From assembly GCA_003524085.1 (NCBI GenBank), contig DOEC01000006.1, forward strand, positions 1,146-65,145: a DNA stretch of 64,000 nt. Direction: 5' to 3'. Of the stretch, positions 8,419 to 26,371 are shown piece after piece. Source of the DNA: Bacillota bacterium (GTDB taxonomy: Bacteria; Bacillota_I; Bacilli_A; RF39; UBA660). A program made the translations under genes and the position numbers. Under the pieces are notes generated by a model, which was not told the origin of the DNA, did not search any database, and saw only the letters and a list, made by a program, of their open reading frames with translations. Each line of letters opens with the position of its first letter. Positions within the stretch are counted from its first letter, which is position 1.

Positions 8419-9105
8419 TTAAACTTTCATTAAACTTTTTAGCCTTTTTATAGCTTTTTTTTCAATTCTTGAGATATAGCTTTGACTTATACCTAACATA
8501 TCAGCTACTTCTTTTTGAGTATATTCTTTTTGATTATATAAGCCATACCTAAGTGTTAGTATTTCTTTATCTCGTTTATTTAAGTTTTCTATTTCTTTAA
8601 TTAGAAGTTCTTTATCAACAATACTTTCATATTCCTTTTCTACTATATCATCAGGTGTTCCTAAAACATCTTCTAAATGTAGTTCGTTACCATCTTGATC
8701 TAAATTAATAGAGTCTTCAAATGAAATTTCAACTTTCCTTCTTTTATTCTTTCTTAAAAACATAAGTATTTCATTATCAATACATCTACTAGCGTATGTT
8801 GCTAGTTTTATGTTCTTGTCTAGTTTATATGTCTTAACTCCTTTGATAAGCCCGATTGTACCAATGCTAACTAAATCTTCTAAGTCATACATTGTATTAT
8901 CATACTTTTTAGCAAGAAAAACTACAAGTCTTAAGTTGTGCTCGATTAGTTTGTTTCTTGCATGCATATCTCCATTATTACTCTTAATGACTAGCTCTTC
9001 TTCCATGCTTTTTTCTAAAGGTGGTGGAAGTATATCGGTACTTCCTAAGTAAAAAACTTTTTCTTTATCCTTAAACAAACTACTTATAAAATCAAATATT
9101 TTCAT
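8419..9105 (-). CDS. sigE: sporulation sigma factor sigma-E (pro-sigma-E)
   Basis: Pro-sequence followed by ILPPPL, NLRLVV and IGTIGLIKGV, and a C-terminal QSYISRIEK. Strong match to SigE; also immediately downstream of spoIIGA. Confidence 0.85.
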   Translation of the reverse strand: MKIFDFISSLFKDKEKVFYLGSTDILPPPLEKSMEEELVIKSNNGDMHARNKLIEHNLRLVVFLAKKYDNTMYDLEDLVSIGTIGLIKGVKTYKLDKNIKLATYASRCIDNEILMFLRKNKRRKVEISFEDSINLDQDGNELHLEDVLGTPDDIVEKEYESIVDKELLIKEIENLNKRDKEILTLRYGLYNQKEYTQKEVADMLGISQSYISRIEKKAIKRLKSLMKV

Positions 9106-9106
9106 G

Positions 9107-9895
9107 TTATCCCTCCATTAATAAATAATTTAATAAAACTTCTACTTTGTTAGACTTTAACTTATCTTTTACTACACCTACTACTATATTCTTTTTTACT
9201 CCAATACCTTCTATAAATATTTTCTTAACTTTGTAACACCTCAACAATCCACCCTCATTAATACTTTGGTATGGTATATAGAAAAATGGAGTGTTTTTAA
9301 TTATACTTTCAAACTTTTTAGAATTAGTTATGATAACTGGTCTATTTGTATATGGATCTATTAAAGTGTTTCCTGTGTCCATGTAGCCTATGAGTTCTAG
9401 TTTACTTTCATTAATATAGATATCCACTTTATAATATAAACTATTAATTTCACGAATAACTTTCATTTGTTTATAATAGATATACATTATAATTGGAGTA
9501 CATATTAATATAAAGATGTAATTAATACTTATGCCTTTATGAAAAAATACCATACCAATATTCTTATAACTAAAGCTTACGTTTAAATAATATATAAACC
9601 CTCCTAAGATTATGCTTATTAAATAAAAATATACCAAGTTAGTTATAAAATACTTAAAGTCAGAATAACCAAATGTTATGAGTATTATCAAAACTGATAA
9701 AAATACCTTAAGTAAAAAGAGTGTTAAAGTAGTTAAGGGCACGAATAAAACAATGATAGTTATACTTCCTAGTAAAGAACCCAATACTATTTTTTTAATA
9801 GAAGTTCTTCTTTTAAGGACAATACTTGTAGTAAGTAAAAGTATAAAATCAAAAAAGAAGTTTAAAAATATTATTAAGTCAACATACACTTTCAT
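9107..9895 (-). CDS. spoIIGA: sigma-E processing peptidase SpoIIGA
   Basis: Polytopic membrane N-terminal half and an aspartic protease motif GYMDTGN in the C-terminal half. Adjacent to and co-oriented with sigE. Confidence 0.8.
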   Translation of the reverse strand: MKVYVDLIIFLNFFFDFILLLTTSIVLKRRTSIKKIVLGSLLGSITIIVLFVPLTTLTLFLLKVFLSVLIILITFGYSDFKYFITNLVYFYLISIILGGFIYYLNVSFSYKNIGMVFFHKGISINYIFILICTPIIMYIYYKQMKVIREINSLYYKVDIYINESKLELIGYMDTGNTLIDPYTNRPVIITNSKKFESIIKNTPFFYIPYQSINEGGLLRCYKVKKIFIEGIGVKKNIVVGVVKDKLKSNKVEVLLNYLLMEG

Positions 9896-9954
9896 GTAAC
9901 CACCAATACAAGTATAATAAAAACGACAAGCATATTTTGTCGTTTTATAGTTTT

Positions 9955-10761
9955 TTATTTTCTTTTTAATCCTTTAGAATATAATTCGTTATATGACCCA
10001 TCCATTAAAGCTATTTGCATGTCTTCATAAATAGACTTTAATTCTTCTAAAGCAATATCTTTAAACATAGTCTGTCCATATATTTCTTCATTAACAGGCT
10101 CTAAAATATTTAAGTGACTCTTTAAAGTACTAGCTATTAATCTAAAGTTAAAGTAATTAAACTTACCTTTTTCATTGATAAACTTATGATAGAAATCAAT
10201 TAATGGACTAATAGATACTAATGTAGGATCATTATATTTTAGTGAGTCTCTTAAACATCTAAGTAAATCAAACTCATCTATACTGTCTCTTGAAGATGAC
10301 ATTATTTCTTTGCTTTTAATTAAGCTTTCAATATATTTTATGTCTCTTGAGTTTTCTCTAAGAGTTTTTTCTAACATTCCTCGGTTTAACAAATCCTTGT
10401 CTTTCTTATAAAATATTGGAAGTGTTCTAACATCTTTTTTAGCACGATACATAATTACTAATTTATGATTATTTCTTAAGTCAACGTCATAGTTAGACTT
10501 TAGTTCAAAGTCATTATTAAATCTAGTAGTAAAATTATCAATTTCTTCTAGTGTTGAAGGCATGGTTACTTTTAAATATTTAGTAAATTCTGCATAGCCT
10601 TCACTATAATGAAAGACTAAATTTCCAAGAAAATACTTGTTTTTAGCATCATCATTATATTTAGCAATTAACCTTTTAATTTCAGAAGTACTATACTTTT
10701 TAAAACTTCTAGTTTCAACCCCAGCCTTAATTCCAATACTATATCTATTAACTTTACCCAT
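9955..10761 (-). CDS. hypothetical protein
   Basis: ORF with RBS; no recognisable motifs. Confidence 0.5.
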   Translation of the reverse strand: MGKVNRYSIGIKAGVETRSFKKYSTSEIKRLIAKYNDDAKNKYFLGNLVFHYSEGYAEFTKYLKVTMPSTLEEIDNFTTRFNNDFELKSNYDVDLRNNHKLVIMYRAKKDVRTLPIFYKKDKDLLNRGMLEKTLRENSRDIKYIESLIKSKEIMSSSRDSIDEFDLLRCLRDSLKYNDPTLVSISPLIDFYHKFINEKGKFNYFNFRLIASTLKSHLNILEPVNEEIYGQTMFKDIALEELKSIYEDMQIALMDGSYNELYSKGLKRK

Positions 10762-10847
10762 AAGACACCCCTTATCTAGTTAAAATTATACCATATTTTG
10801 TACAATATGTCAACTTTACACATAAAGGTACTTTATTTGAATATGAT

Positions 10848-10931
10848 TAATTTATGATAATTCTTAGCTGCTACTTTAGCATTTTCATTTATTATTTCAG
10901 TCTTTATATTACTTAAATATTTTTCTTCCAT
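10848..10931 (-). pseudogene. 5' remnant (~28 codons) of a fourth tandem DUF1016 paralog, truncated
   Basis: DNA at 10858-10931 is homologous to the first ~75 nt of the DUF1016 copies (MEEKYLSNIKTEIINENAKVAAKNY...), then reads into unrelated sequence and a stop. The same RBS junction (CCTCCT) is found between copies. Confidence 0.6.
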
Positions 10932-10943
10932 AAGCTTTTCCTC

Positions 10944-11852
10944 CTAACTAATTTGCACAGTTTTATTTATTTTAAATTCTACTATAGTTACTTGATTATC
11001 TTTTACGTAATGAGCTTCAAACTTATTTACTGACTTTGTTATAATTATTCCAATAGTACTATTTTGAGTTATATTTTTTAAGTGTTCGTCAATATAGTTC
11101 ATATACGTTTTTATTTGACCATAGTCACTTTTCTTATATTCTCTTGATTTTATCTCTACTACACAATATCTACTTTCAACCACATTATAAAATAGATAGT
11201 CTATATAATTCTTTTTGTCTCCAATGTTAAGTTTATATTCTCTTCCGACGTAAAAATATCCACCGCCTAATTGTTTCATAAAACTATCTAAGTTTTCATA
11301 AATAATTTCTTGTAATATTTTTTCAGTATAAACTTCATAACTTTTATTAGGTGTTAACACTATTGGACTGGGGACACTTTGAATTAAAGAAAGTTCTTCT
11401 TTATTTAAAAGACTTTCTTTTGCTTCAGTTGAGAGTCTACCATACTCATTACTCTTTATTCTTTCAGCTAATGCTCTTTTACTTAAATTATCTCGTTTAG
11501 TAATATGAATATAATACTTAATTTCTTTGATATCTCTTAGTGATAATAAAATCTTGTAATGACTCCACGTCAATTGTCGCTCCAGTGGAGCGACTTTTTG
11601 AATTAATAAATAAAATTGTTGTATCTTATATAAATCTTTTTCCTTATATCCACTTCCAAATTCCTTAGTTAAAATACTTGCATATTTTTTTACTATTCCT
11701 TCTCCATAGTGTTTACCTGCTTCTACTAGTTCCCTTCCTATATTATAATTCATTGTAAGTTTTACATTATTTATCTGATAATTCTTAGCTACTACTTTAG
11801 CATTTCCATTTATTATTTCAGTCTTTATATTACTTAAATATTCGTCTATCAT
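10944..11852 (-). CDS. DUF1016/YhcG-family PD-(D/E)xK nuclease-like protein, tandem copy 1
   Basis: N-terminal YhcG-like block (NYNIGRELVEAGKHYGEGIVKKYA...QLTWSHY). C-terminal PD-(D/E)xK core (IDYLFYN...CVVEIKSREYKKSDYGQ). Confidence 0.7.
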   Translation of the reverse strand: MIDEYLSNIKTEIINGNAKVVAKNYQINNVKLTMNYNIGRELVEAGKHYGEGIVKKYASILTKEFGSGYKEKDLYKIQQFYLLIQKVAPLERQLTWSHYKILLSLRDIKEIKYYIHITKRDNLSKRALAERIKSNEYGRLSTEAKESLLNKEELSLIQSVPSPIVLTPNKSYEVYTEKILQEIIYENLDSFMKQLGGGYFYVGREYKLNIGDKKNYIDYLFYNVVESRYCVVEIKSREYKKSDYGQIKTYMNYIDEHLKNITQNSTIGIIITKSVNKFEAHYVKDNQVTIVEFKINKTVQIS

Positions 11853-11864
11853 AAATTTTCCCTC

Positions 11865-12773
11865 CTAACTAATTTGCACAGTTTTGTTTATTTTAAATTC
11901 TACTATAGTTACTTGATTATCTTTTACATAATGTGCTTCAAACTTGTTTACTGATTTTGTTATAATTATTCCAATAGTATTATTTTGAGTTATATTTTTT
12001 AAGTGTTCGTCAATGTAGTTCATATACGTTTTTATTTGACCATAATCGCTTTTTCTATATTCTCTTGCTTTTATTTCAACTACACAATATCTACTGTCAA
12101 CTACATTATAAAATAGATAATCTATATAATTCTTTTTGTCTCCAATGTTAAGTTTATATTCCCTACCAATAAAAGCGTAGCCTCCACCAAGTTGATGCAT
12201 AAAATCTTCTATATTTTCAAAGATTATTTCTTGTAATATTTTTTCAGTATAAACTTTATAACTTTTATTAGATGTCAACACTATTGGACTTGGGACACTT
12301 TGAATTAAAGAAAGTTCTTCTTTATTTAAAAGACTTTCTTTTGTTCCATCTGAAAGTCTATCATACTCATCACTTCTTATTATTTCAGCTAATTTTCTAT
12401 AACTTAAATTATCTCTTATAGAAATATTAGTATAATAATTGATTTTATTGATATCTTTTAAAGGTAAAAGTAATCTTATGTGTTCCCAAGTCAATTGGTG
12501 CGGCAATGCCGCACCTTTTTCAAAAAGAACATAAAATTGACGCATTCTCTTTAAATTAGATACAGAATATCCACTTCCAAATTCCTTAGTTAAAATACTT
12601 GCATATTTTTTTACTATTCCTTCTCCATAGTGTTTACCTGCTTCTACTAGTTTCCTTCCTATATTATAATTCATTGTAAGTTTTACATTATTTATCTGAT
12701 AATTCTTAGCTGCTACTTTAGCATTTCCATTTATTATTTCAGTCTTTATATTACTTAAATATTCGTCTATCAT
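11865..12773 (-). CDS. DUF1016/YhcG-family PD-(D/E)xK nuclease-like protein, tandem copy 2
   Basis: Over 85% identical to copy 1, with 12-nt intergenic gaps; differences are concentrated in aa ~68-130. Confidence 0.7.
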   Translation of the reverse strand: MIDEYLSNIKTEIINGNAKVAAKNYQINNVKLTMNYNIGRKLVEAGKHYGEGIVKKYASILTKEFGSGYSVSNLKRMRQFYVLFEKGAALPHQLTWEHIRLLLPLKDINKINYYTNISIRDNLSYRKLAEIIRSDEYDRLSDGTKESLLNKEELSLIQSVPSPIVLTSNKSYKVYTEKILQEIIFENIEDFMHQLGGGYAFIGREYKLNIGDKKNYIDYLFYNVVDSRYCVVEIKAREYRKSDYGQIKTYMNYIDEHLKNITQNNTIGIIITKSVNKFEAHYVKDNQVTIVEFKINKTVQIS

Positions 12774-12785
12774 AAATTTTCCCTC

Positions 12786-13694
12786 CTAACTAATTTGCAC
12801 AGTTTTGTTTATTTTAAATCCTACTATAGTTACTTGATTATCTTTTACATAATGAGCTTCAAACTTATTTACTGATTTTGTTATAATTATTCCAATAGTA
12901 CTATTTTGAGTTATAGTTTTCAAGTGTTCGTCAATGTAGTTCATATACGTTTTTATTTGGCCATAATCGCTTTTCTTATACTCTCTTACTTTTATTTCAA
13001 CTACACAAAAACAGTTCATTTTGTAATTGTATAAAAGATAGTCTATATAATTCTTTTTATCTCCAATATTGAGTTTATATTCTCTACCAATAAAAGAGTA
13101 TTCTCCACCAAGTTGATGCATAAAATCTTCTATATTTTCAAATATTATTTCTTGTAATATCTTCTCATTATAAAATTCATAGCTTTTATTTGGTGTCAAT
13201 ACTATCGGACTGGGTATGCTTTGAATTATTGAAAGCTCTTCTTTGTTTAAAATACCCTCTTTCGTTTCAGTTGAAAGTCTGCCATACTCATTACTTCTTA
13301 TTCTTTCAGCCAATGCTCTTTTGCTTAAATTATCTCGTTTAGTAATACTAATATAATACTTGATTTCTTCTACATTTTTTAATGGTAAAAGTAATTTATA
13401 ATGAGACCAAGTCAAAAGTTGCCCCACTGGAGCAACTTTTTGACTTAAATCATAAAATTGCTTCATTCTTGTTAATTCTGTAAAAGTATATCCCTTACCA
13501 AATTCTACCGTTAATTCCTTTGCATATTTTTTTACTATTCCTTCTCCATAATGTTTACCAGCTTCTGCTAGTTCCTTACCAATATTATAGTTCATTGTAA
13601 GTTTTACATTGTTTATCTGATAATTTTTAGCTATTACTTTAGCATTACCATTTATTATTTCATTCTTTATATTTTCTAAATAATTGTCTATCAT
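12786..13694 (-). CDS. DUF1016/YhcG-family PD-(D/E)xK nuclease-like protein, tandem copy 3
   Basis: As copy 2. Confidence 0.7.
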   Translation of the reverse strand: MIDNYLENIKNEIINGNAKVIAKNYQINNVKLTMNYNIGKELAEAGKHYGEGIVKKYAKELTVEFGKGYTFTELTRMKQFYDLSQKVAPVGQLLTWSHYKLLLPLKNVEEIKYYISITKRDNLSKRALAERIRSNEYGRLSTETKEGILNKEELSIIQSIPSPIVLTPNKSYEFYNEKILQEIIFENIEDFMHQLGGEYSFIGREYKLNIGDKKNYIDYLLYNYKMNCFCVVEIKVREYKKSDYGQIKTYMNYIDEHLKTITQNSTIGIIITKSVNKFEAHYVKDNQVTIVGFKINKTVQIS

Positions 13695-13702
13695 AAATTT
13701 TT

Positions 13703-13777
13703 CCTCCTAATATATTTATTCGACAAAAAACGCGAAAAGTCTTTTTTTTATTTTGACTTTACGCGAAATTCGACGTG
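13703..13777. repeat. 75-bp leader/promoter block, copy A (direct repeat partner at 26208-26281)
   Basis: cctcctaatatatttattcgacaaaaaacgcgaaaagtctttttttt...acgcgaaattcgacgtg is about 90% identical to 26208-26281. Contains an imperfect inverted repeat CGCGAAAAGTC...GACTTTACGCG. Confidence 0.8.
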
Positions 13778-13864
13778 TTTTTTTACATGTTTTGTGTAAA
13801 CTAAGTTATAAAAAAAGAAAGGATAAACAACTTATAAAAGCTATTTGCTCCTTCCCCATAAAAA

Positions 13865-13900
13865 TTGATGCTTTAGCAAAAGTAAGCATCAATTATTTTT
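13865..13900 (-). terminator. rho-independent terminator downstream of the arc operon transporter gene
   Basis: 9-bp stem TTGATGCTT/AAGCATCAA, flanked by an A-run on plus (U-run on the minus transcript) and a T-run on plus, so possibly bidirectional. Confidence 0.6.
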
Positions 13901-13925
13901 TATTTTTTTTTGATTATTTGATTTT

Positions 13926-15368
13926 TTAAACAATTGAGAATAACATCAATACTAAAATGTTTACTATTGCAATTGTTATAACTACTTTTAATGCCCATTT
14001 GAACCAAGTTGAATAGTCTACTTTAGCAAGAGCAAGTCCTCCCATTATTGCTCCACAAGTTGGAGTTATTAAGTTTACTAATCCATTTGCACTTACAATA
14101 GTCATAGCCGCTACTTCAGTTGAATAACCTAAGCTTGCAGCAAGTGGTCCAGTTATTGGAGTTGAAAGTGTTGCAAGTCCACTACTTGATGGTACTAAGA
14201 ATGATAACACTATATGTAGTAAGTAGTTTAGTGGAACGAATACTAATTCTGGTAGTTTACTTAAATGTTCAGTTGCATTATAAATAATGTAATTGTCTAA
14301 GTAAGTTTGTTTCATTAATACAGAAGCTCCTCTTGCTACTGCTATTACTAAGATAACACCTATCATATCTTTTGTTCCATCAATAAATGTATCTACAAAC
14401 TCTTTTTCTTTGTAACCATTGATTAAAGATATTACTATACTCATTAAGAAGAACCAAAGTGCAGACTCGTAGAAGTACCAGTTACCTAAACTAGAGCCTG
14501 TAAGCCATCCAGTAAATCCATCAAAGAAAGTTATGTCAAATTCTCCCCATGGAATAAATCCTATAATCATTATTAAGAATGTTAAAGCAAAAACACATAA
14601 AGTTATTTTTTGTTTTGTAGTTAAAACTTCTTTTTGCTTTGATTTTTCCTCAAATTTACCAAATTCTTTTTCAGCTTCTTCTTGCTCTCTTAAAGAAAGT
14701 ATAGTTGAACCTTTATCTTTTTTAACTTTACTTGCATAAGCTAACACAAACAATGTTGATATTAGGTAAGCTAATAACCATAAGATTATGCCTATAAATA
14801 ATACAGTTCCTTGATTATATTCTACACCAGCTGCTCTTAAAGCAGATAATACAGCTCCTGTTGCAAATGGGTTAACTGTTGAACCAAGAACACCAGTACC
14901 AGCACCTAATAAAACTACTGCTGCACCTACAAGTGGGTCCATTCCTGCGGCAAACATCGTAGCTGCTAGAAGTACGTAGAAGCCAACTGTTTCTTCAAGC
15001 ATTCCATATGTTGTACCACAAATTGAGAAGATAAACATTAATATTGGTATTAACCATAATTCTTTACCTTTTAATTTTTGTACTAAAACTTTGATACCTG
15101 TTTCTAAAGCCTTAGTTTTGTCTATTATTTTAAGGAATCCTCCTAAAATAAGTACGAATATTGCAACATCTACAGCATTTTCAAATCCCAATATTGGTGC
15201 TAGTAAGATTTGGCTTAATTTAGCCCCTACTGTACCACTTCCATTTACTATTTCTTCACCAACGAATTTAGCATCTGGTAGTAAATGTGAAAGAATTCCA
15301 AGTACTACTATAACTATCATTATAATAGTATATGCTGATAACATGCTTCTATTCTTTTTCTTTGTCAT
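13926..15368 (-). CDS. YfcC/DcuC-like membrane transporter (putative arginine/ornithine antiporter of the ADI operon)
   Basis: Polytopic protein with YfcC-family signatures (NPF, YASKVKK); last gene of the arc operon. Confidence 0.55.
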   Translation of the reverse strand: MTKKKNRSMLSAYTIIMIVIVVLGILSHLLPDAKFVGEEIVNGSGTVGAKLSQILLAPILGFENAVDVAIFVLILGGFLKIIDKTKALETGIKVLVQKLKGKELWLIPILMFIFSICGTTYGMLEETVGFYVLLAATMFAAGMDPLVGAAVVLLGAGTGVLGSTVNPFATGAVLSALRAAGVEYNQGTVLFIGIILWLLAYLISTLFVLAYASKVKKDKGSTILSLREQEEAEKEFGKFEEKSKQKEVLTTKQKITLCVFALTFLIMIIGFIPWGEFDITFFDGFTGWLTGSSLGNWYFYESALWFFLMSIVISLINGYKEKEFVDTFIDGTKDMIGVILVIAVARGASVLMKQTYLDNYIIYNATEHLSKLPELVFVPLNYLLHIVLSFLVPSSSGLATLSTPITGPLAASLGYSTEVAAMTIVSANGLVNLITPTCGAIMGGLALAKVDYSTWFKWALKVVITIAIVNILVLMLFSIV

Positions 15369-15369
15369 A

Positions 15370-16305
15370 TTATTTTCCTCCTTTTATGACTGTACCATTT
15401 TTATATTCTAATGCGTCACTAGCGCATTCTAGCGATGTAATTATTGCAGTTTTATTTCTGTTTTCTACAAAATTTATACATGCTTCTATTTTAGGCAGCA
15501 TACTTCCAGGAGCAAACTGGTTATCACTTATATACTTTCTTGCTTCTTCTACTGTGATAGTATCTAACCCAGTCATATTTTCTTTATTGTAGTTTAAGTA
15601 TACTTTATCAACAGCAGTTAATATAAGTAACACATCAGCATCTACTTCTTTAGCAAGTAAACTAGCTGACTTATCTTTATCAATTACTGCATCTACTCCT
15701 TTTAGAAGATTATTTTCCATTATAACTGGAACTCCTCCACCTCCAGCACATATAACAATTACATCATCTTCAACAAGTTTTTTTATAACTTTGTCATTTA
15801 GTATTTTTTTAGGTATAGGAGATGGTACTACTCTTCTATATCCACGGCCTGCGTCTTCTTTAAAAATGTAACCTTTTTCACTTTCTATTACACTGGCTTC
15901 TTCTTTAGTGTAAAACATTCCAATAGGTTTAGTAGGATTTTTAAAACATCCATCATTTTTATCAACTAAGACCTCTGTTATTAAGGCTACTATAGATTTG
16001 TCAATGTCTCTTTTGTTTAGTTCATTCATTATTGACTGTTCTATATGGTAACCAATATAACCTTCACTCATACTACCACACTCTGCAAATGGCATTGATG
16101 GAGTAGCAGCACTTCCATTACTAGCATACTCCATTGCAAGAGAGATTTGCCCAACTTGCGGTCCATTTCCATGTGTAAGTATTACTTTGTTACCTTTTTC
16201 TATAAGGTCCACTATTACTTTAGAAACACCCTCTAGAATAGATAATTGTTCACTAGGAGTCTTCCCTAGAGCATTTCCTCCTAGAGCTATAACTATTTTA
16301 CTCAT
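15370..16305 (-). CDS. arcC: carbamate kinase
   Basis: [14 protein letters not shown]... family signature; operon context. Confidence 0.85.
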   Translation of the reverse strand: MSKIVIALGGNALGKTPSEQLSILEGVSKVIVDLIEKGNKVILTHGNGPQVGQISLAMEYASNGSAATPSMPFAECGSMSEGYIGYHIEQSIMNELNKRDIDKSIVALITEVLVDKNDGCFKNPTKPIGMFYTKEEASVIESEKGYIFKEDAGRGYRRVVPSPIPKKILNDKVIKKLVEDDVIVICAGGGGVPVIMENNLLKGVDAVIDKDKSASLLAKEVDADVLLILTAVDKVYLNYNKENMTGLDTITVEEARKYISDNQFAPGSMLPKIEACINFVENRNKTAIITSLECASDALEYKNGTVIKGGK

Positions 16306-17297
16306 TACTCTTCCCTCATTGTTAGATATATTACAGCTTTAATTGTATGTAATCTATTTTCAGCTTCATCAAATACTTTTGATTTTGGACTATTAAATAC
16401 TTCGTCAGTTACTTCCATTTCTTTTAGACCAAATTTTTCATATATCTCTTTTCCAATTGTTGTATTTAAATCATGAAATGATGGTAAGCAGTGTAAAAAT
16501 ATTGCGTTTTCGCTTGCATTTGACATAACACTCATGTTTACTTGATATGGACTAAGTAATTTAATACGACTAGCCCATACTTCATCTGCTTCTCCCATTG
16601 AAACCCATACGTCAGTATATATTACGTCAGCACTCTTAGTAGCAACATTTACGTCTTCTTCTAAAGTTATAGTACACCCATTAGTACTAGCAATTTCCTT
16701 ACAAGTATTAACTAACTCTTCTTGTGGCCATAATTCACGTGGAGCACATGCTACAAAGTTTATTCCCATTTTAGCACATACTACCATAAGTGAATTTGCA
16801 ACGTTGTTTCTAGCATCTCCCATAAATACTAACTTTAAGCCCTTTAAATATCCAAAGTTTTCTTCAATAGTCATAATATCTGCAAGCATTTGTGTTGGAT
16901 GAAATTCTGTTGTAAGTCCGTTCCATACAGGTACTCCAGCATTTTTGGCTAACTCTTCTACTATTGTTTGACTGTATCCACGATATTCTATTCCATCATA
17001 CATTCTACCTAATACTTTAGCAGTATCAGCAATACTTTCTTTTTTACCCATTTGACTAGCATTAGGATCTAAATACGTCACTCCCATACCAAGGTCAAGT
17101 GCAGCAACTTCAAAAGCACATCTTGTTCTAGTTGAAGTTTTTTCAAATAAAAGTACAATGTTTTTATTTGGTAAATATTTATGTTCAATATGTAATTTCT
17201 TTTTTTCTTTAAAATCTTTAGATATGTCTAGTAAAAACCTTATTTCTTCAGGTGTATAATCTAATAATTTTAAGAAATGTCTTCCTGTTAAATCCAT
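16305..17297 (-). CDS. arcB: ornithine carbamoyltransferase (catabolic)
   Basis: STRTRCAFE and HCLP motifs. Confidence 0.9.
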
Positions 17298-18541
17298 TAT
17301 ATATCCTCCCTAACTAGTGGCATACTCATACATCTTGGGCCACCTCTTCCACGTGATAATTCAGCACTTGGCATTTCAAGAACTTTTATTCCGTGTTCTC
17401 TTAGTATATTGTTAGTCATGTTGTTTCTATCGTATACTACTACTACACCAGGCGCTATACAAAGAGTGTTTGTTCCGTCATTCCATTGTTCTCTTTCACT
17501 AGATATTTTTTCTCCTCCAGCACATGGAATAAGTGTAATTTTCTTTCCAAGATATTTTTCTAATATTTCTTCTAAACTACCTTCTACTTTTTTAACATTT
17601 AAGTCTTCAAATGTAGTTGGATCATCTCCTTCAGTAATTTCGTAAACTTCTAGAGTGTTCATTATTCCTGGATGGTATGTAAACTTATCATAATCTATTT
17701 GTGTAAATACAGTGTCTAAATGCATAAATGCACGACTTTCTGGTATTTTGAAAGATAGTACTGTTTCTACTTCACAAGTAGGTTCTTTAAATAAGTTTTT
17801 AGCAAGTTCATCAATTGCGGCAGGCTCTGTTCTTTGTGAGATACCTACAGCAATAACTTTATTACTTATGTTTAATACGTCTCCACCTTCAATGTGGTAA
17901 GGTAGGTTTCTACTATAGTACCTTTTTACTTTACCCTTGAAGTCAGGATGATACTTGAATATAAAGTCAGCATATATAGTTTCTCTATTTCTAGTAACTG
18001 AATACATTCTATTTAGTATTGCCCCGTTACCACAGCTTGCGAATGGGTCTCTTGTAAAGTAGAGGTTTGGTATTGGGTCAGCTAAGAAGTCACTCTCATC
18101 ACTTACAAAGTCAACTAAGCTTTTTTCTACTTCTCTTTTTCTTAATGGTATTTCTTCTATTTTTATACCACTCATTGTTTTTAATACTAATTCTTTTTTA
18201 TCAGTAAAGCTATGTAAGTAGTCATATACTAGAGTTCTATATTTAGGAGTAGTTATTCCAGCTTCATAGATAAATTCTTTTAGAAATTCGTCTAGTATTT
18301 CTTCACTAATACTTAATACTTCACTAACTAGGTCTTCTAGATATACTACTTCTATACCATTTTCTTTTAGAATTCTTGCGAATTCGTCGTGTTCAGCTTG
18401 CGCGACTGGTAAGAAAGGTATATCATCAAATAAAAGTCTTCCTAATGTATCTGGAGTTAGATTAAGCAGTTCATTTCCAGGTCTATGAAGAAGTACTTTC
18501 TTAAGTGGACCTATTTCACTTTTAACATTAATTCCTTGCAT
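17297..18541 (-). CDS. arcA: arginine deiminase
   Basis: [22 protein letters not shown]..., 414 aa. Confidence 0.9.
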
Positions 18542-25266: not shown

Positions 25267-25454
25267 GTAGTTACAAATATATCACTAAATGTGGTTATTG
25301 TCAATTATTTTAGGTGTTTTATAAGTTACAAAATTAAGTGAATTCATTGGAAAACCTTTAACAAAACTAAAGGCAGCTAAATCTTTGATTTCTGTCAAAA
25401 AGGTGTGACAGTTTCGCACTTTTTTGAAAACATCTTATATGAGCCATTTAAATT

Positions 25455-25480
25455 TCCAACCACTGGTTGGAATTTTTTTG
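25455..25480 (+). terminator. perfect 9-1-9 hairpin TTCCAACCA-C-TGGTTGGAA followed by TTTTTTTG (terminator-like; possible 3' end of a small plus-strand transcript)
   Basis: Read directly. It has the same CCA-N-TGG core architecture as the intragenic palindromes of the DUF1016 copies. A TTGTCA-17-TATAAG promoter-like site lies ~160 bp upstream. Confidence 0.4.
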
Positions 25481-25604: not shown

Positions 25605-25997
25605 TTTTCTCTAAGTGCACGCTCACTTAAATTACCTCGTTTAAGTTATATTAATGTAATACTTGATTTCTCCTAAGTTTTTTAAAGGTAAAAGTAATTT
25701 ATAATGTGACCAAGTCAATTGGTCATCCAATGGATGACCTTTTTCAATAAAATTATGGAATAATCTCATGTATTTAAGATTTGTAATCCCGTAATTTGTA
25801 CCAAATTCTTTTGTTAATTCTTTTGCATACTTTTTAACTATACCTTCGCCGTAGTGTTTACCAGCTTCTGCTAATTCCTTTCCAATATTATAATTCATTG
25901 TTAGTTTTACATTGTTTATCTGATAATTCTTAACTATTAATTTAGCATTACCATTTATTATTTCACTCCTTATATTCTCTAAATAATTTTCTTCCAT
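25605..25997 (-). pseudogene. decayed DUF1016/YhcG paralog (copy 4), truncated at 118 codons with in-frame stops
   Basis: The N-terminal 118 aa are ~80% identical to copies 1-3. Where copy 3 has AAA, an in-frame TAA occurs (…KYYINIT*), more stops follow, and homology is lost near 25605. Confidence 0.7.
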
Positions 25998-26207: not shown

Positions 26208-26281
26208 CCTCCTAATATATTTATTCGACAAAAAACGTGAAAAGCCTTTTTTTATTTTAACTTTACGCGAAATTTAACGTG
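26208..26281. repeat. 75-bp leader/promoter block, copy B (direct repeat partner of 13703-13777)
   Basis: See copy A. Here it lies ~210 bp upstream of the decayed copy 4. Confidence 0.8.
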
Positions 26282-26371
26282 AAATTTTACACAAAAATGT
26301 AAAATTTACTAGTGTTTTTATCATTGTCACTTAGTTGTCACTTTATATGTGATAAAATGACATAAATTTAG

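Follow-up and report, generated by a model that had tools for sequence, protein, structure and literature searches.

A palindrome held at one codon position in YhcG/DUF1016 nuclease genes is very probably a nucleic-acid element laid over a permissive protein loop

INTRODUCTION

Sites that serve the DNA rather than the encoded protein can lie within genes. One parS site is located inside the spo0J gene of Bacillus subtilis, and other intragenic operators include lacO2 and those of purR. The operator of KorB is an odd palindrome of 13 bp. In this report we describe a palindrome of variable sequence that occupies the same codons in genes of the YhcG/DUF1016 nuclease family. The analysis began with 64,000 nucleotides of a Bacillota genome of the RF39 group (positions 1,146 to 65,145 of contig DOEC01000006.1, assembly GCA_003524085.1), a stretch hereafter called the window, in which four copies of such a gene carry four different palindromes.

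The closest described phenomenon is found in the mitochondria of Nematomorpha, where functional genes contain perfect inverted repeats. Both arms of these repeats are translated, and degenerate codon positions are used to preserve the pairing. The repeats reach 284 bp, are spread among many genes, and come and go from species to species; conversion of one arm by the other has been suggested as the means of their upkeep (PMC6649704). Template switching, or quasipalindrome correction, is a documented maker and keeper of hairpins (PMC8794818, PMC8604942). In the searchable open-access full text, no description of yhcG or DUF1016 genes with a palindrome or hairpin was found.

RESULTS

Four gene copies carry four different palindromes at the same codons

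The window contains three complete tandem copies and one truncated copy of a gene encoding a DUF1016_N domain and, in the complete copies, a YhcG_C nuclease domain. Each copy includes a palindrome of two 9-nt arms around one central base (written 9-1-9). The palindromes, the T runs that follow them, and the genes in which they lie are as follows.

11576-11594: palindrome of copy 1, GTCGCTCCA-G-TGGAGCGAC; perfect 9-1-9; codons 87-92 (VAPLER) and the first base of codon 93
12497-12515: palindrome of copy 2, GGTGCGGCA-A-TGCCGCACC; perfect 9-1-9; encodes GAALPH
13418-13436 (core; whole dyad 13409-13446): palindrome of copy 3, core GTTGCCCCA-C-TGGAGCAAC; one arm mismatch; encodes VAPVGQ
25721-25739: palindrome of copy 4, GGTCATCCA-A-TGGATGACC; perfect 9-1-9; encodes GHPLDD
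11595-11599, plus (antisense) strand: T5 run after the copy 1 palindrome, formed by the AAA codon of Lys-86 and the end of the Gln-85 codon; equivalent runs at 12516-12520, 13437-13441, and 25740-25744
10944-11852, minus strand: copy 1, open reading frame (ORF) of 302 amino acids, DUF1016_N plus YhcG_C PD-(D/E)XK nuclease; Pfam PF17761 (3.7e-25) and PF06250 (1e-28)
11865-12773, minus strand: copy 2, ORF of 302 amino acids with Pfam matches; 921-nt tandem repeat
12786-13694, minus strand: copy 3, ORF of 302 amino acids with Pfam matches, first gene of the array; 921-nt tandem repeat
25641-25997, minus strand: copy 4, truncated and decayed ORF, with similarity recognizable by alignment to about 25500; Pfam DUF1016_N only (1.5e-18)

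A sequence-only reading of the window had reported these four palindromes, in frame at the same codons and encoding the four peptides listed, with copies 1, 2, and 4 perfect and copy 3 carrying one mismatch. A check of the sequence bears out each of these points. The same reading had proposed a common core of CCA-N-TGG. Copy 2 has GCA-A-TGC, and therefore the shared core is only CA-N-TG. On the plus strand, TTTTT follows all four palindromes, as had been noted, and the preceding flank is GTCAATTG in copies 1, 2, and 4 and GTCAAAAG in copy 3. The flanking GTCAATTG and TTTTT are conserved codons for Gln-Leu-Thr and for Lys, respectively, read on the opposite strand. The mismatch of copy 3 is T·G on the sense strand and C·A on the antisense strand, and its dyad continues into the flanks (AAGTCAAAA ... 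TTTTGACTT).

With a G+C content of 28.3%, the window contains 32 palindromes of the 9-1-9 form with no more than one mismatch. The palindromes of the four copies and one extragenic hairpin are the richest in G+C (47-74%), and the others do not exceed 42%. In a search for distant partners, targets, or a regulon, each 9-nt arm was found only once in the window, and the arms recur elsewhere in only 2 of 150 loci. When folded as RNA, the window palindromes give -12.6 to -21.5 kcal/mol on either strand, with z scores of -3.2 to -5.9. For copy 1 the plus strand gives -15.8 kcal/mol and the minus strand -15.1 (z about -4.6), and for copy 3 the values are -21.5 kcal/mol in the sense direction and -17.6 in the antisense direction. 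Copy 4 also contains a second, overlapping 9-1-9 palindrome with one mismatch at 25707-25725 (TGACCAAGT-C-AATTGGTCA), to which the left arm of the main palindrome and the conserved WSH/QLT codons both contribute.

The extragenic hairpin had been placed at 25455-25473; its actual position is one nucleotide lower.

25454-25479 (hairpin 25454-25472): TTCCAACCA-C-TGGTTGGAA followed by T7, outside any ORF

Both of its 9-nt arms are identical to those of the palindrome in a DUF1016 gene of a related locus (L064, peptide GIFQPLVGK, core starting at about L064:4247). The flanks show weak similarity (FQPVVGNLNGSY versus FQPLVGKLSWSH, E=0.03). As judged from these matches, the hairpin is probably the relic of a further decayed DUF1016 paralog beside the truncated copy 4, in which the palindrome has stayed perfect and the flanks have decayed. 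Because the flank similarity is weak, this origin is probable rather than proven.

Arm pairing is preserved by covariation and at the expense of codon usage

Among the 120 proteins of the public collection that are most similar (82-97% identity), the block peptides are VAPLER (59 proteins), GAPLAH (42), GAALPH (14), and VAPVGQ (2), along with three single variants. The Pro/Ala swap that distinguishes GAPLAH from GAALPH is a compensated C/G exchange in both arms, the GAPLAH allele being GGTGCGCCA-N-TGGCGCACC. A scan of one genome per species yielded 79 loci, from metagenome-assembled genomes (MAGs) of uncultured gut Bacilli (including "Tenericutes" and Clostridium sp. CAG:628 types). These loci hold 150 gene copies, most of them 40-85% identical to copy 2 and often arranged in arrays of up to seven. 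Nearly every one of the 150 copies has a different palindrome at the same codons. The pairing and codon statistics for this clade are based on 145 homologous genes, and the covariation statistics on a gap-free alignment of 142 sequences.

Among the 119 distinct 19-mers, 41 have all nine pairs, 54 have eight, and 18 have seven; the 54 with eight pairs are mismatched intermediates. The central base is free (G in 37, C in 34, T in 25, and A in 23). The genes average 8.02 Watson-Crick pairs of a possible nine, compared with 4.14 when the same peptides are re-encoded with the codon usage of the family. Eight or more pairs are formed in 80% of the genes, but in only 0.4% of the re-encoded sequences and in 2.7% of those whose codon columns were drawn independently. 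At other centers of the same genes, arms of at least 8 have a frequency of 9e-5.

In the alignment, 92.4% of cells are paired, versus 57.6% after shuffling (0 of 500 shuffles reach the observed value) and 25-43% when the partners are slid. Cells in which both sides have changed number 380, versus 120 in shuffles, and the covariation score is 0.751, versus 0.162. These values uphold the earlier suggestion that symmetry is kept through paired changes, by selection on the nucleic acid and not on the peptide alone, and they place the pairing well beyond chance for the given peptides and codon usage.

Codon choice changes sharply within the block. In the window clade the 19-mer is 61% G+C, versus 22% in the rest of the gene, and the G+C content at the third position of the six block codons is 58%, versus 17%. 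The frequency of individual codons in the block, relative to elsewhere, is 96% versus 15% for His CAC, 89% versus 9% for Asp GAC, and 81% versus 8% for Val GTG, and further shifts are seen for Leu CTG (46% versus 1%), Ala GCG (37% versus 5%), and Ser TCG (37% versus 3%). Rare codons are recruited to preserve the complementarity of the arms.

The codon for the conserved Trp varies among the loci. It is TGG in the window copies but not in some related loci (L015:5112-5180, L049:2379-2447, L021:316-384, and L076:264-332). In some of these it is TGA, and genetic code 4 is possible for the MAGs concerned; in others it is TAG, which suggests pseudogenes.

The element is a feature of the YhcG/DUF1016 family

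Eight plasmid-borne homologs with 25-30% identity were compared. Six have a palindrome at the equivalent place, which extends the element to plasmids of five other phyla:

Vescimonas (Clostridia) plasmid homolog: 15-1-15
Cetobacterium (Fusobacteriota) plasmid homolog: 12-1-12
Hymenobacter (Bacteroidota) plasmid homolog: 12-1-12
Leptolyngbya (Cyanobacteriota) plasmid homolog: 13-3-13
Rhodococcus (Actinomycetota) plasmid homolog: 14-3-14
Serratia plasmid homolog: 7-3-7, reaching 12 with one mismatch

The Granulicella plasmid homolog has only a weak 6-3-6 palindrome, and the Legionella plasmid homolog has none at the equivalent place. In homologs from viral contigs, whose gene G+C content ranges from 0.24 to 0.65, 47 of 80 have it as the top-ranking perfect palindrome of their ORF, always in phase 0.

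The geometry of the family palindrome is constrained. It is odd: the arms measure 7-15 nt, and the spacer is 1, 3, 5, or 7 nt, never an even number. Its center always falls on codon position 1, usually of a Leu, Val, or Met codon, and normally lies six codons upstream of the Trp in (L)(S/T)W(S/T)H where this motif exists. The dyad noticed in the window is thus present at the same codon in other family members, from E. coli to Cyanobacteria, and the four window palindromes are local instances of something that the YhcG/DUF1016 nuclease family possesses as a whole.

The yhcG gene of E. coli K-12 contains three palindromic units of 39 nt in tandem. Together they span L088:8131-8237, which corresponds to about 3368130-3368236 of NC_000913.3.

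Center L088:8143: unit 1, 12-1-12 with one mismatch; perfect in other strains
Center L088:8182: unit 2, 14-3-14 with one mismatch
Center L088:8221: unit 3, perfect 15-3-15, AAAGATTTGGCAGAC-GCT-GTCTGCCAAATCTTT

Escherichia and related Proteobacteria have between one and three units, in proteins of 348-391 amino acids. One strain has an 80-nt deletion that removes units 2 and 3, and in a common truncated yhcG allele homology is lost inside the right arm of unit 3. Of the 3540 genomes with the unit 3 palindrome, 3500 share it at an identity of 99% or more.

The base composition of the element is largely independent of that of its host. In the wider family the palindrome is near 50% G+C whatever the G+C content of the gene, with values of 0.49 versus 0.34 in low-GC genes and 0.41 versus 0.62 in high-GC genes (r = -0.31). 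Longer arms are more AT-rich (r = -0.50). Composition is therefore held against mutational bias in both directions, which indicates selection and speaks against purely neutral conversion.

Pairing patterns fit duplex DNA or templated correction better than an RNA stem

On the sense strand, the cells that depart from Watson-Crick pairing comprise 58 A·C, 22 G·T, and 35 other combinations, of which 31, 18, and 19, respectively, are at interior positions. These counts are approximately those expected from unselected transitions and transversions and give no sign that wobble is tolerated. Read on the antisense strand, G·U pairs number 58 versus 22 in the sense direction, which is only a mild enrichment. 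We rejected the G·U signature as a means of assigning the strand because it is weak and partly driven by codon position.

The innermost pair, which flanks the single central base, has no way of forming in a hairpin, but 92% of the sequences are complementary there. The pair is kept through synonymous choice: Thr is encoded there by ACA in 82% and ACT in 2% of cases, versus 42% and 45% elsewhere. When 75 nt on either side were examined with RNAalifold on both strands, no conserved structure was found besides the hairpin itself. Likewise, a search of positions 10700-14000 against Rfam 15 with permissive E-values gave only chance matches to small nucleolar RNAs and microRNAs, with E above 3. The apparent intolerance of wobble, the kept innermost pair, the free center, and the lack of other structure together fit a dyad in duplex DNA or templated correction between arms, and not a plain RNA stem.

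A terminator-like arrangement is found in this clade

The sequence-only reading had also pointed to a terminator-like layout on the antisense strand. In the clade of the window, this strand has a stem of 8 bp, rich in G+C and closed by a 3-nt loop, with four to six T residues after it, and in 122 of 145 genes the T run has a length of at least four. Lys before the stem is encoded by AAA in 128 genes and by AAG in 2, versus a ratio of 83:17 elsewhere, and for Glu the counts are 54 GAA and 1 GAG. In the clade the antisense strand folds more stably than the sense strand, by 0.8 kcal/mol (-11.9 versus -11.1 kcal/mol, p = 5e-4). When both strands of the 64-kb window were scanned for hairpins with at least four G-C pairs and a T run, only palindrome sites and the hairpin at 25454 were returned, copy 3 being missed because of its mismatch. 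A scan with a terminator consensus identified copies 1 and 2 as terminator-like and gave 3 sites, versus 0.3 in shuffles. The layout is thus real in this clade, but it does not extend to most of the wider family. The palindromes of E. coli, Vescimonas, Hymenobacter, Rhodococcus, Leptolyngbya, and most viral-contig homologs have no T run on either strand, and consequently the T run cannot be the ancestral reason for the element.

No conserved antisense promoter feeding the hairpin was found in the clade genes. In E. coli, published end-mapping data place transcription start sites (TSSs) within yhcG at 3367906(+) and 3368581(-) and list no 3' end in yhcG (PMC7815308 supplement). The antisense TSS at 3368581 is about 345 nt "upstream" of the yhcG palindromes (PMC7815308 supplement). 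From its sequence features, the clade element would probably also stop antisense transcription, as a secondary and clade-specific property.

Antisense-strand motifs resembling promoters are concentrated in only one place, past the hairpin over codons 17-37 (for example, 11740-11800), and they point away from the gene body (94 hits in 131 clade genes). They could reflect divergent antisense transcription, or they could be a by-product of the AT-rich codons for the conserved MNYNIG sequence.

Two translational roles were considered and rejected. An internal translation start at the central NTG codon is contradicted by the frequent use of CTG, GCG, or CCT there in the wider family and by the lack of a general Shine-Dalgarno-like sequence. 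A -1 frameshift site, formed by the A run and the hairpin, would have a spacer of 0 nt and an A run of only 4-6.

The palindrome encodes a loop next to a putative helix-turn-helix

In an AlphaFold2 (AF2) model of copy 2 (mean local confidence score, pLDDT, 78; global template-modeling score, pTM, 0.52), residues 86-95 form a loop between helices 71-85 and 96-105. The extra units of E. coli are inserted in the same loop, and the loop is therefore permissive. The C-terminal domain has the PD-(D/E)XK fold, and its model matches the nucleases NucS, Hjc, Cas4, and HsdR-N. The modeled N-terminal domain superposes on the DNA-binding domains of Spo0J and KorB in this one AF2 model; single-sequence and profile searches against solved structures returned no match. 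If the model holds, helices 52-65 and 71-85 would form a helix-turn-helix (HTH), and the palindrome would come immediately downstream of the recognition-helix codons.

In its outer 4-5 nt, the half-site varies by subfamily with the two residues that follow the conserved Leu of helix 71-85:

GGTG…CACC: helix LKR
AGTCA: helix LKY or LKL
TGGCAGACA: helix LRN
TGGTC: helix LRR
xTTGC: helix LTR or LSR
GTGTC: helix LFR
xTGGCG: helix LNK

At matched overall identity, proteins with the same outer half-site are more alike at residues 67-86 than those with different ones (0.51 versus 0.30, 0.38 versus 0.20, 0.57 versus 0.41, and 0.70 versus 0.48).

Paralog mosaics have their breakpoints elsewhere

Recombination between copies had been suggested as one role of the site. 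In a change-point analysis of 6,216 gene pairs, 36 clear mosaics were found, and all of their breakpoints are located at residues 126-210, with none at residues 87-93. The suggestion is not supported by this distribution.

The placement of the breakpoints reflects homogenization of the C-terminal halves of neighboring paralogs, which are up to 90-100% identical downstream of residues 126-210 (10944-13694 in the window; L014, L023, L027, L046, and L059). The N-terminal HTH-like part and the palindrome remain distinct between paralogs, a pattern in which the nuclease domain evolves in concert and the variable module is protected.

Host genes and their surroundings

Copies 1-3 form a 921-nt tandem repeat with 12-nt spacers between the genes. 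Their Pfam scores are 88-96 bits for PF17761 and 101-108 bits for PF06250, relative to gathering cut-offs near 33. PADLOC assigns the genes to the candidate single-gene defense family PDC-S02 (4e-56), for which no functional study was found in the searchable literature. A remnant of a further copy adjoins the array:

10855-10931, minus strand: 5' stub of another tandem gene copy, about 25 codons long; start codon ATG at 10931, 12 nt past the copy 1 stop; repeat of 10855-11154 versus 11776-12075

The position of this stub 12 nt after the copy 1 stop indicates that the array once had at least four members here. Beyond the stub, a perfect-consensus promoter (TTGACA-17-TGnTATAAT) is present at 10813-10785 on the minus strand and serves the next gene. 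An 85-nt element at 13703-13787 and 26208-26291 (83-92% identical) lies upstream of the first gene of the array and of the truncated copy 4. It holds an inverted repeat of its own (ACGCGAAAAGTC … GACTTTACGCG) and may be a shared promoter or operator region of the nuclease genes.

The neighbors of the array (8419-10761 and 13926-18541) are housekeeping genes, and no obvious mobile element is seen. One flank includes a sigma factor with a SpoIIGA-type protease, which suggests a spore-former. The other flank encodes a DcuC-type carrier and the arginine deiminase pathway (arginine deiminase, ornithine carbamoyltransferase, and carbamate kinase).

DISCUSSION

A proposed control site carried within the gene

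We consider it very probable that the palindrome is a selected, family-wide nucleic-acid element overlying a permissive protein loop. What the element does is a separate matter, and here we tentatively prefer a control site borne by the gene itself: a dyad or hairpin at the level of DNA, which a dimeric or structure-specific protein would read. Such a cis-acting element, being carried inside the loop of the gene, would move with it, and the gene in question appears to be a horizontally mobile and probably toxic nuclease gene of the defense type. The element would act most likely on DNA, either as a dyad site or as an extruded hairpin or cruciform. A site for a dimeric protein, or a cruciform, had been among the roles suggested by the sequence-only reading, and several features suit it better than they suit an RNA stem. 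The best candidate for its reader is the product of the gene, which would combine an HTH-like domain with a nuclease domain resembling Holliday-junction resolvases. Reading by this product might provide self-control that is independent of the promoter, for example through an intragenic roadblock. Arm-to-arm templated correction by template switching may help to keep the arms identical up to the center.

A narrower form of this proposal, which we regard as unlikely, is that a dimer of the protein recognizes the palindrome or its hairpin, situated directly after the codons of its own HTH recognition helix, as a portable self-operator or self-mark. If so, the tight linkage of site and helix would let tandem paralogs evolve mutually orthogonal protein-site pairs.

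Several points weigh against a control site of this kind. Each of its functional steps is inferred, and the ParB/KorB-like fold comes from the one AF2 model described above, with no sequence-level match to solved structures. Arms of 9 bp are short for cruciform extrusion, and arms of 12-15 bp exceed what an HTH dimer needs. Since the arms occur nowhere else in the window or loci, apart from the two exceptions among 150, there is no regulon. The inner 5 nt of the arms covary freely within a subfamily while the helix is unchanged, which points to a structural or templating constraint and not to reading of the bases by the helix. The link between helix and half-site may reflect only shared ancestry and physical linkage. 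Finally, the more stable antisense fold and the excess of AAA favor an antisense-RNA role in this clade.

Alternative explanations

Such a role could be that of an intrinsic terminator, whose stem, loop, and T4-6 run would stop antisense transcripts, spurious or regulatory, before they reach the 5' part and promoter of the nuclease gene. The near-exclusive coincidence of T-run hairpins with the palindromes and the relic, the bias toward AAA and GAA, the greater number of antisense G·U pairs, the slightly more stable antisense fold, and the antisense TSS of E. coli are all consistent with this possibility. We nevertheless hold it to be unlikely as the general explanation, since its best support is confined to this clade. 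Most of the wider family, including GC-rich viral contigs, has the palindrome without the T run; neither a conserved antisense promoter nor a 3' end in E. coli yhcG has been found; and the A run is largely a conserved Lys after Glu or Gln in an AT-rich genome. Moreover, a terminator has no use for the innermost pair or for perfect arms of 12-15 bp. The innermost pair is equally foreign to a stem-loop in the sense mRNA, which might tune the amount of the toxic protein through universal host machinery by acting as an exonuclease barrier, an endonuclease site next to the A run, or a translational speed bump. A structure that is kept while its sequence is free is typical of RNA elements, and G+C enrichment in AT-rich hosts, together with the trade-off between arm length and G+C content, fits a demand for stem stability. 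Even the single mismatch of copy 3 is a G·U pair on the sense strand. However, A·C mismatches outnumber G·U on that strand, the reverse of what a functional RNA stem shows, and the impossible innermost pair is kept through a synonymous position. The element exceeds its gene in A+T content when the host is GC-rich, and neither an Rfam match nor an ORF-internal 3' end in yhcG is on record. A sense-strand stem-loop is therefore improbable.

The same low standing is given to a palindrome that perpetuates itself without function, an ancient inverted duplication kept by template switching or arm conversion that cannot be deleted without harm to the protein. This would account for symmetry that is perfect up to the center, the lack of a wobble preference, and the exclusively odd spacers. 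It would also suit the one to three units of E. coli, the deletions between them, the common allele whose homology ends inside an arm, and the survival of a perfect palindrome in the apparently dead relic at 25454, and the mechanism is documented in other systems (PMC8794818, PMC8604942, PMC6649704). Against it stands a composition held near 50% G+C in the face of opposite biases, which neutral conversion would not produce. Retention at one fixed site is near-universal across phyla and hundreds of paralogs, and the other genes of the window lack any coding palindrome of similar G+C richness. In addition, template switching would hardly be efficient with arms as short as 9 nt. The events in E. 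coli, in which homology ends inside palindrome 3 and deletions fall between units, could instead be taken, with the mosaicism of the tandem paralogs, as traces of a recombination signal, a fragile site that promotes the exchange of N- and C-terminal modules. This is very improbable: none of the 36 mosaic breakpoints lies at residues 87-93, and members present in single copy keep the palindrome too. What probability remains belongs to some explanation not yet conceived.

Implications

The element is a nucleic-acid signal laid over a protein code whose position and symmetry, but not sequence, are conserved across phyla. Its host family is on the PADLOC list of candidate phage-defense genes, and its presence in yhcG of E. 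coli K-12 makes it directly testable in the best-studied bacterium. If the palindrome is a site of self-recognition or self-control, it shows that mobile toxic genes can carry their own regulation within the reading frame. If it is kept only by conversion, it is the clearest bacterial example of an "immortal" coding palindrome. In either case, caution is needed when codon usage, ratios of nonsynonymous to synonymous substitution (dN/dS), or gene designs are considered for the YhcG family.

Comparison with known systems

Rho-independent terminators, including bidirectional ones, resemble the element as it occurs in the window clade, where the antisense strand has an 8-bp stem, a 3-nt loop, and a T4-6 run, with a matching A run on the other side. 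Unlike them, the YhcG palindrome lies inside a coding sequence at a fixed codon and not at the end of a transcription unit. It is conserved without the T run, and its complementarity includes a pair that is impossible in a hairpin.

The ParB-parS and KorB-operator systems are similar in other respects. The modeled N-terminal domain superposes on theirs, and the YhcG palindrome is likewise odd with a free center and is located in its own gene beside the putative recognition-helix codons. Its outer half-site also tracks the helix by subfamily. In contrast to these systems, YhcG proteins have no sequence-level homology to ParB or KorB and, by Pfam, no ParB N-terminal CTPase domain, and the partner domain is a nuclease. 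The YhcG sites differ in nearly every paralog, and binding is only putative.

Rickettsia palindromic elements, and repeats resembling repetitive extragenic palindromes or miniature inverted-repeat transposable elements, share with the YhcG element a palindromic module that is tolerated in a protein loop, and the 39-nt unit of the E. coli type is tandemly multiplied. Those elements are dispersed, present in many copies of conserved sequence, and found in unrelated genes, whereas the YhcG palindrome is unique in its neighborhood, specific to one family, and positionally homologous.

Template switching yields multi-nucleotide paired changes that keep stems perfect, and the spacers and arms of the YhcG palindromes are as it predicts. 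It is a mutational process, however, and not a function, and alone it leaves the fixed position, the near-universal retention, and the composition of about 50% G+C unexplained. The coding palindromes of Nematomorpha mitochondria therefore remain the closest described phenomenon, from which the YhcG element differs in its length of 15-33 bp, its restriction to one homologous codon of one gene family, and its maintained composition.

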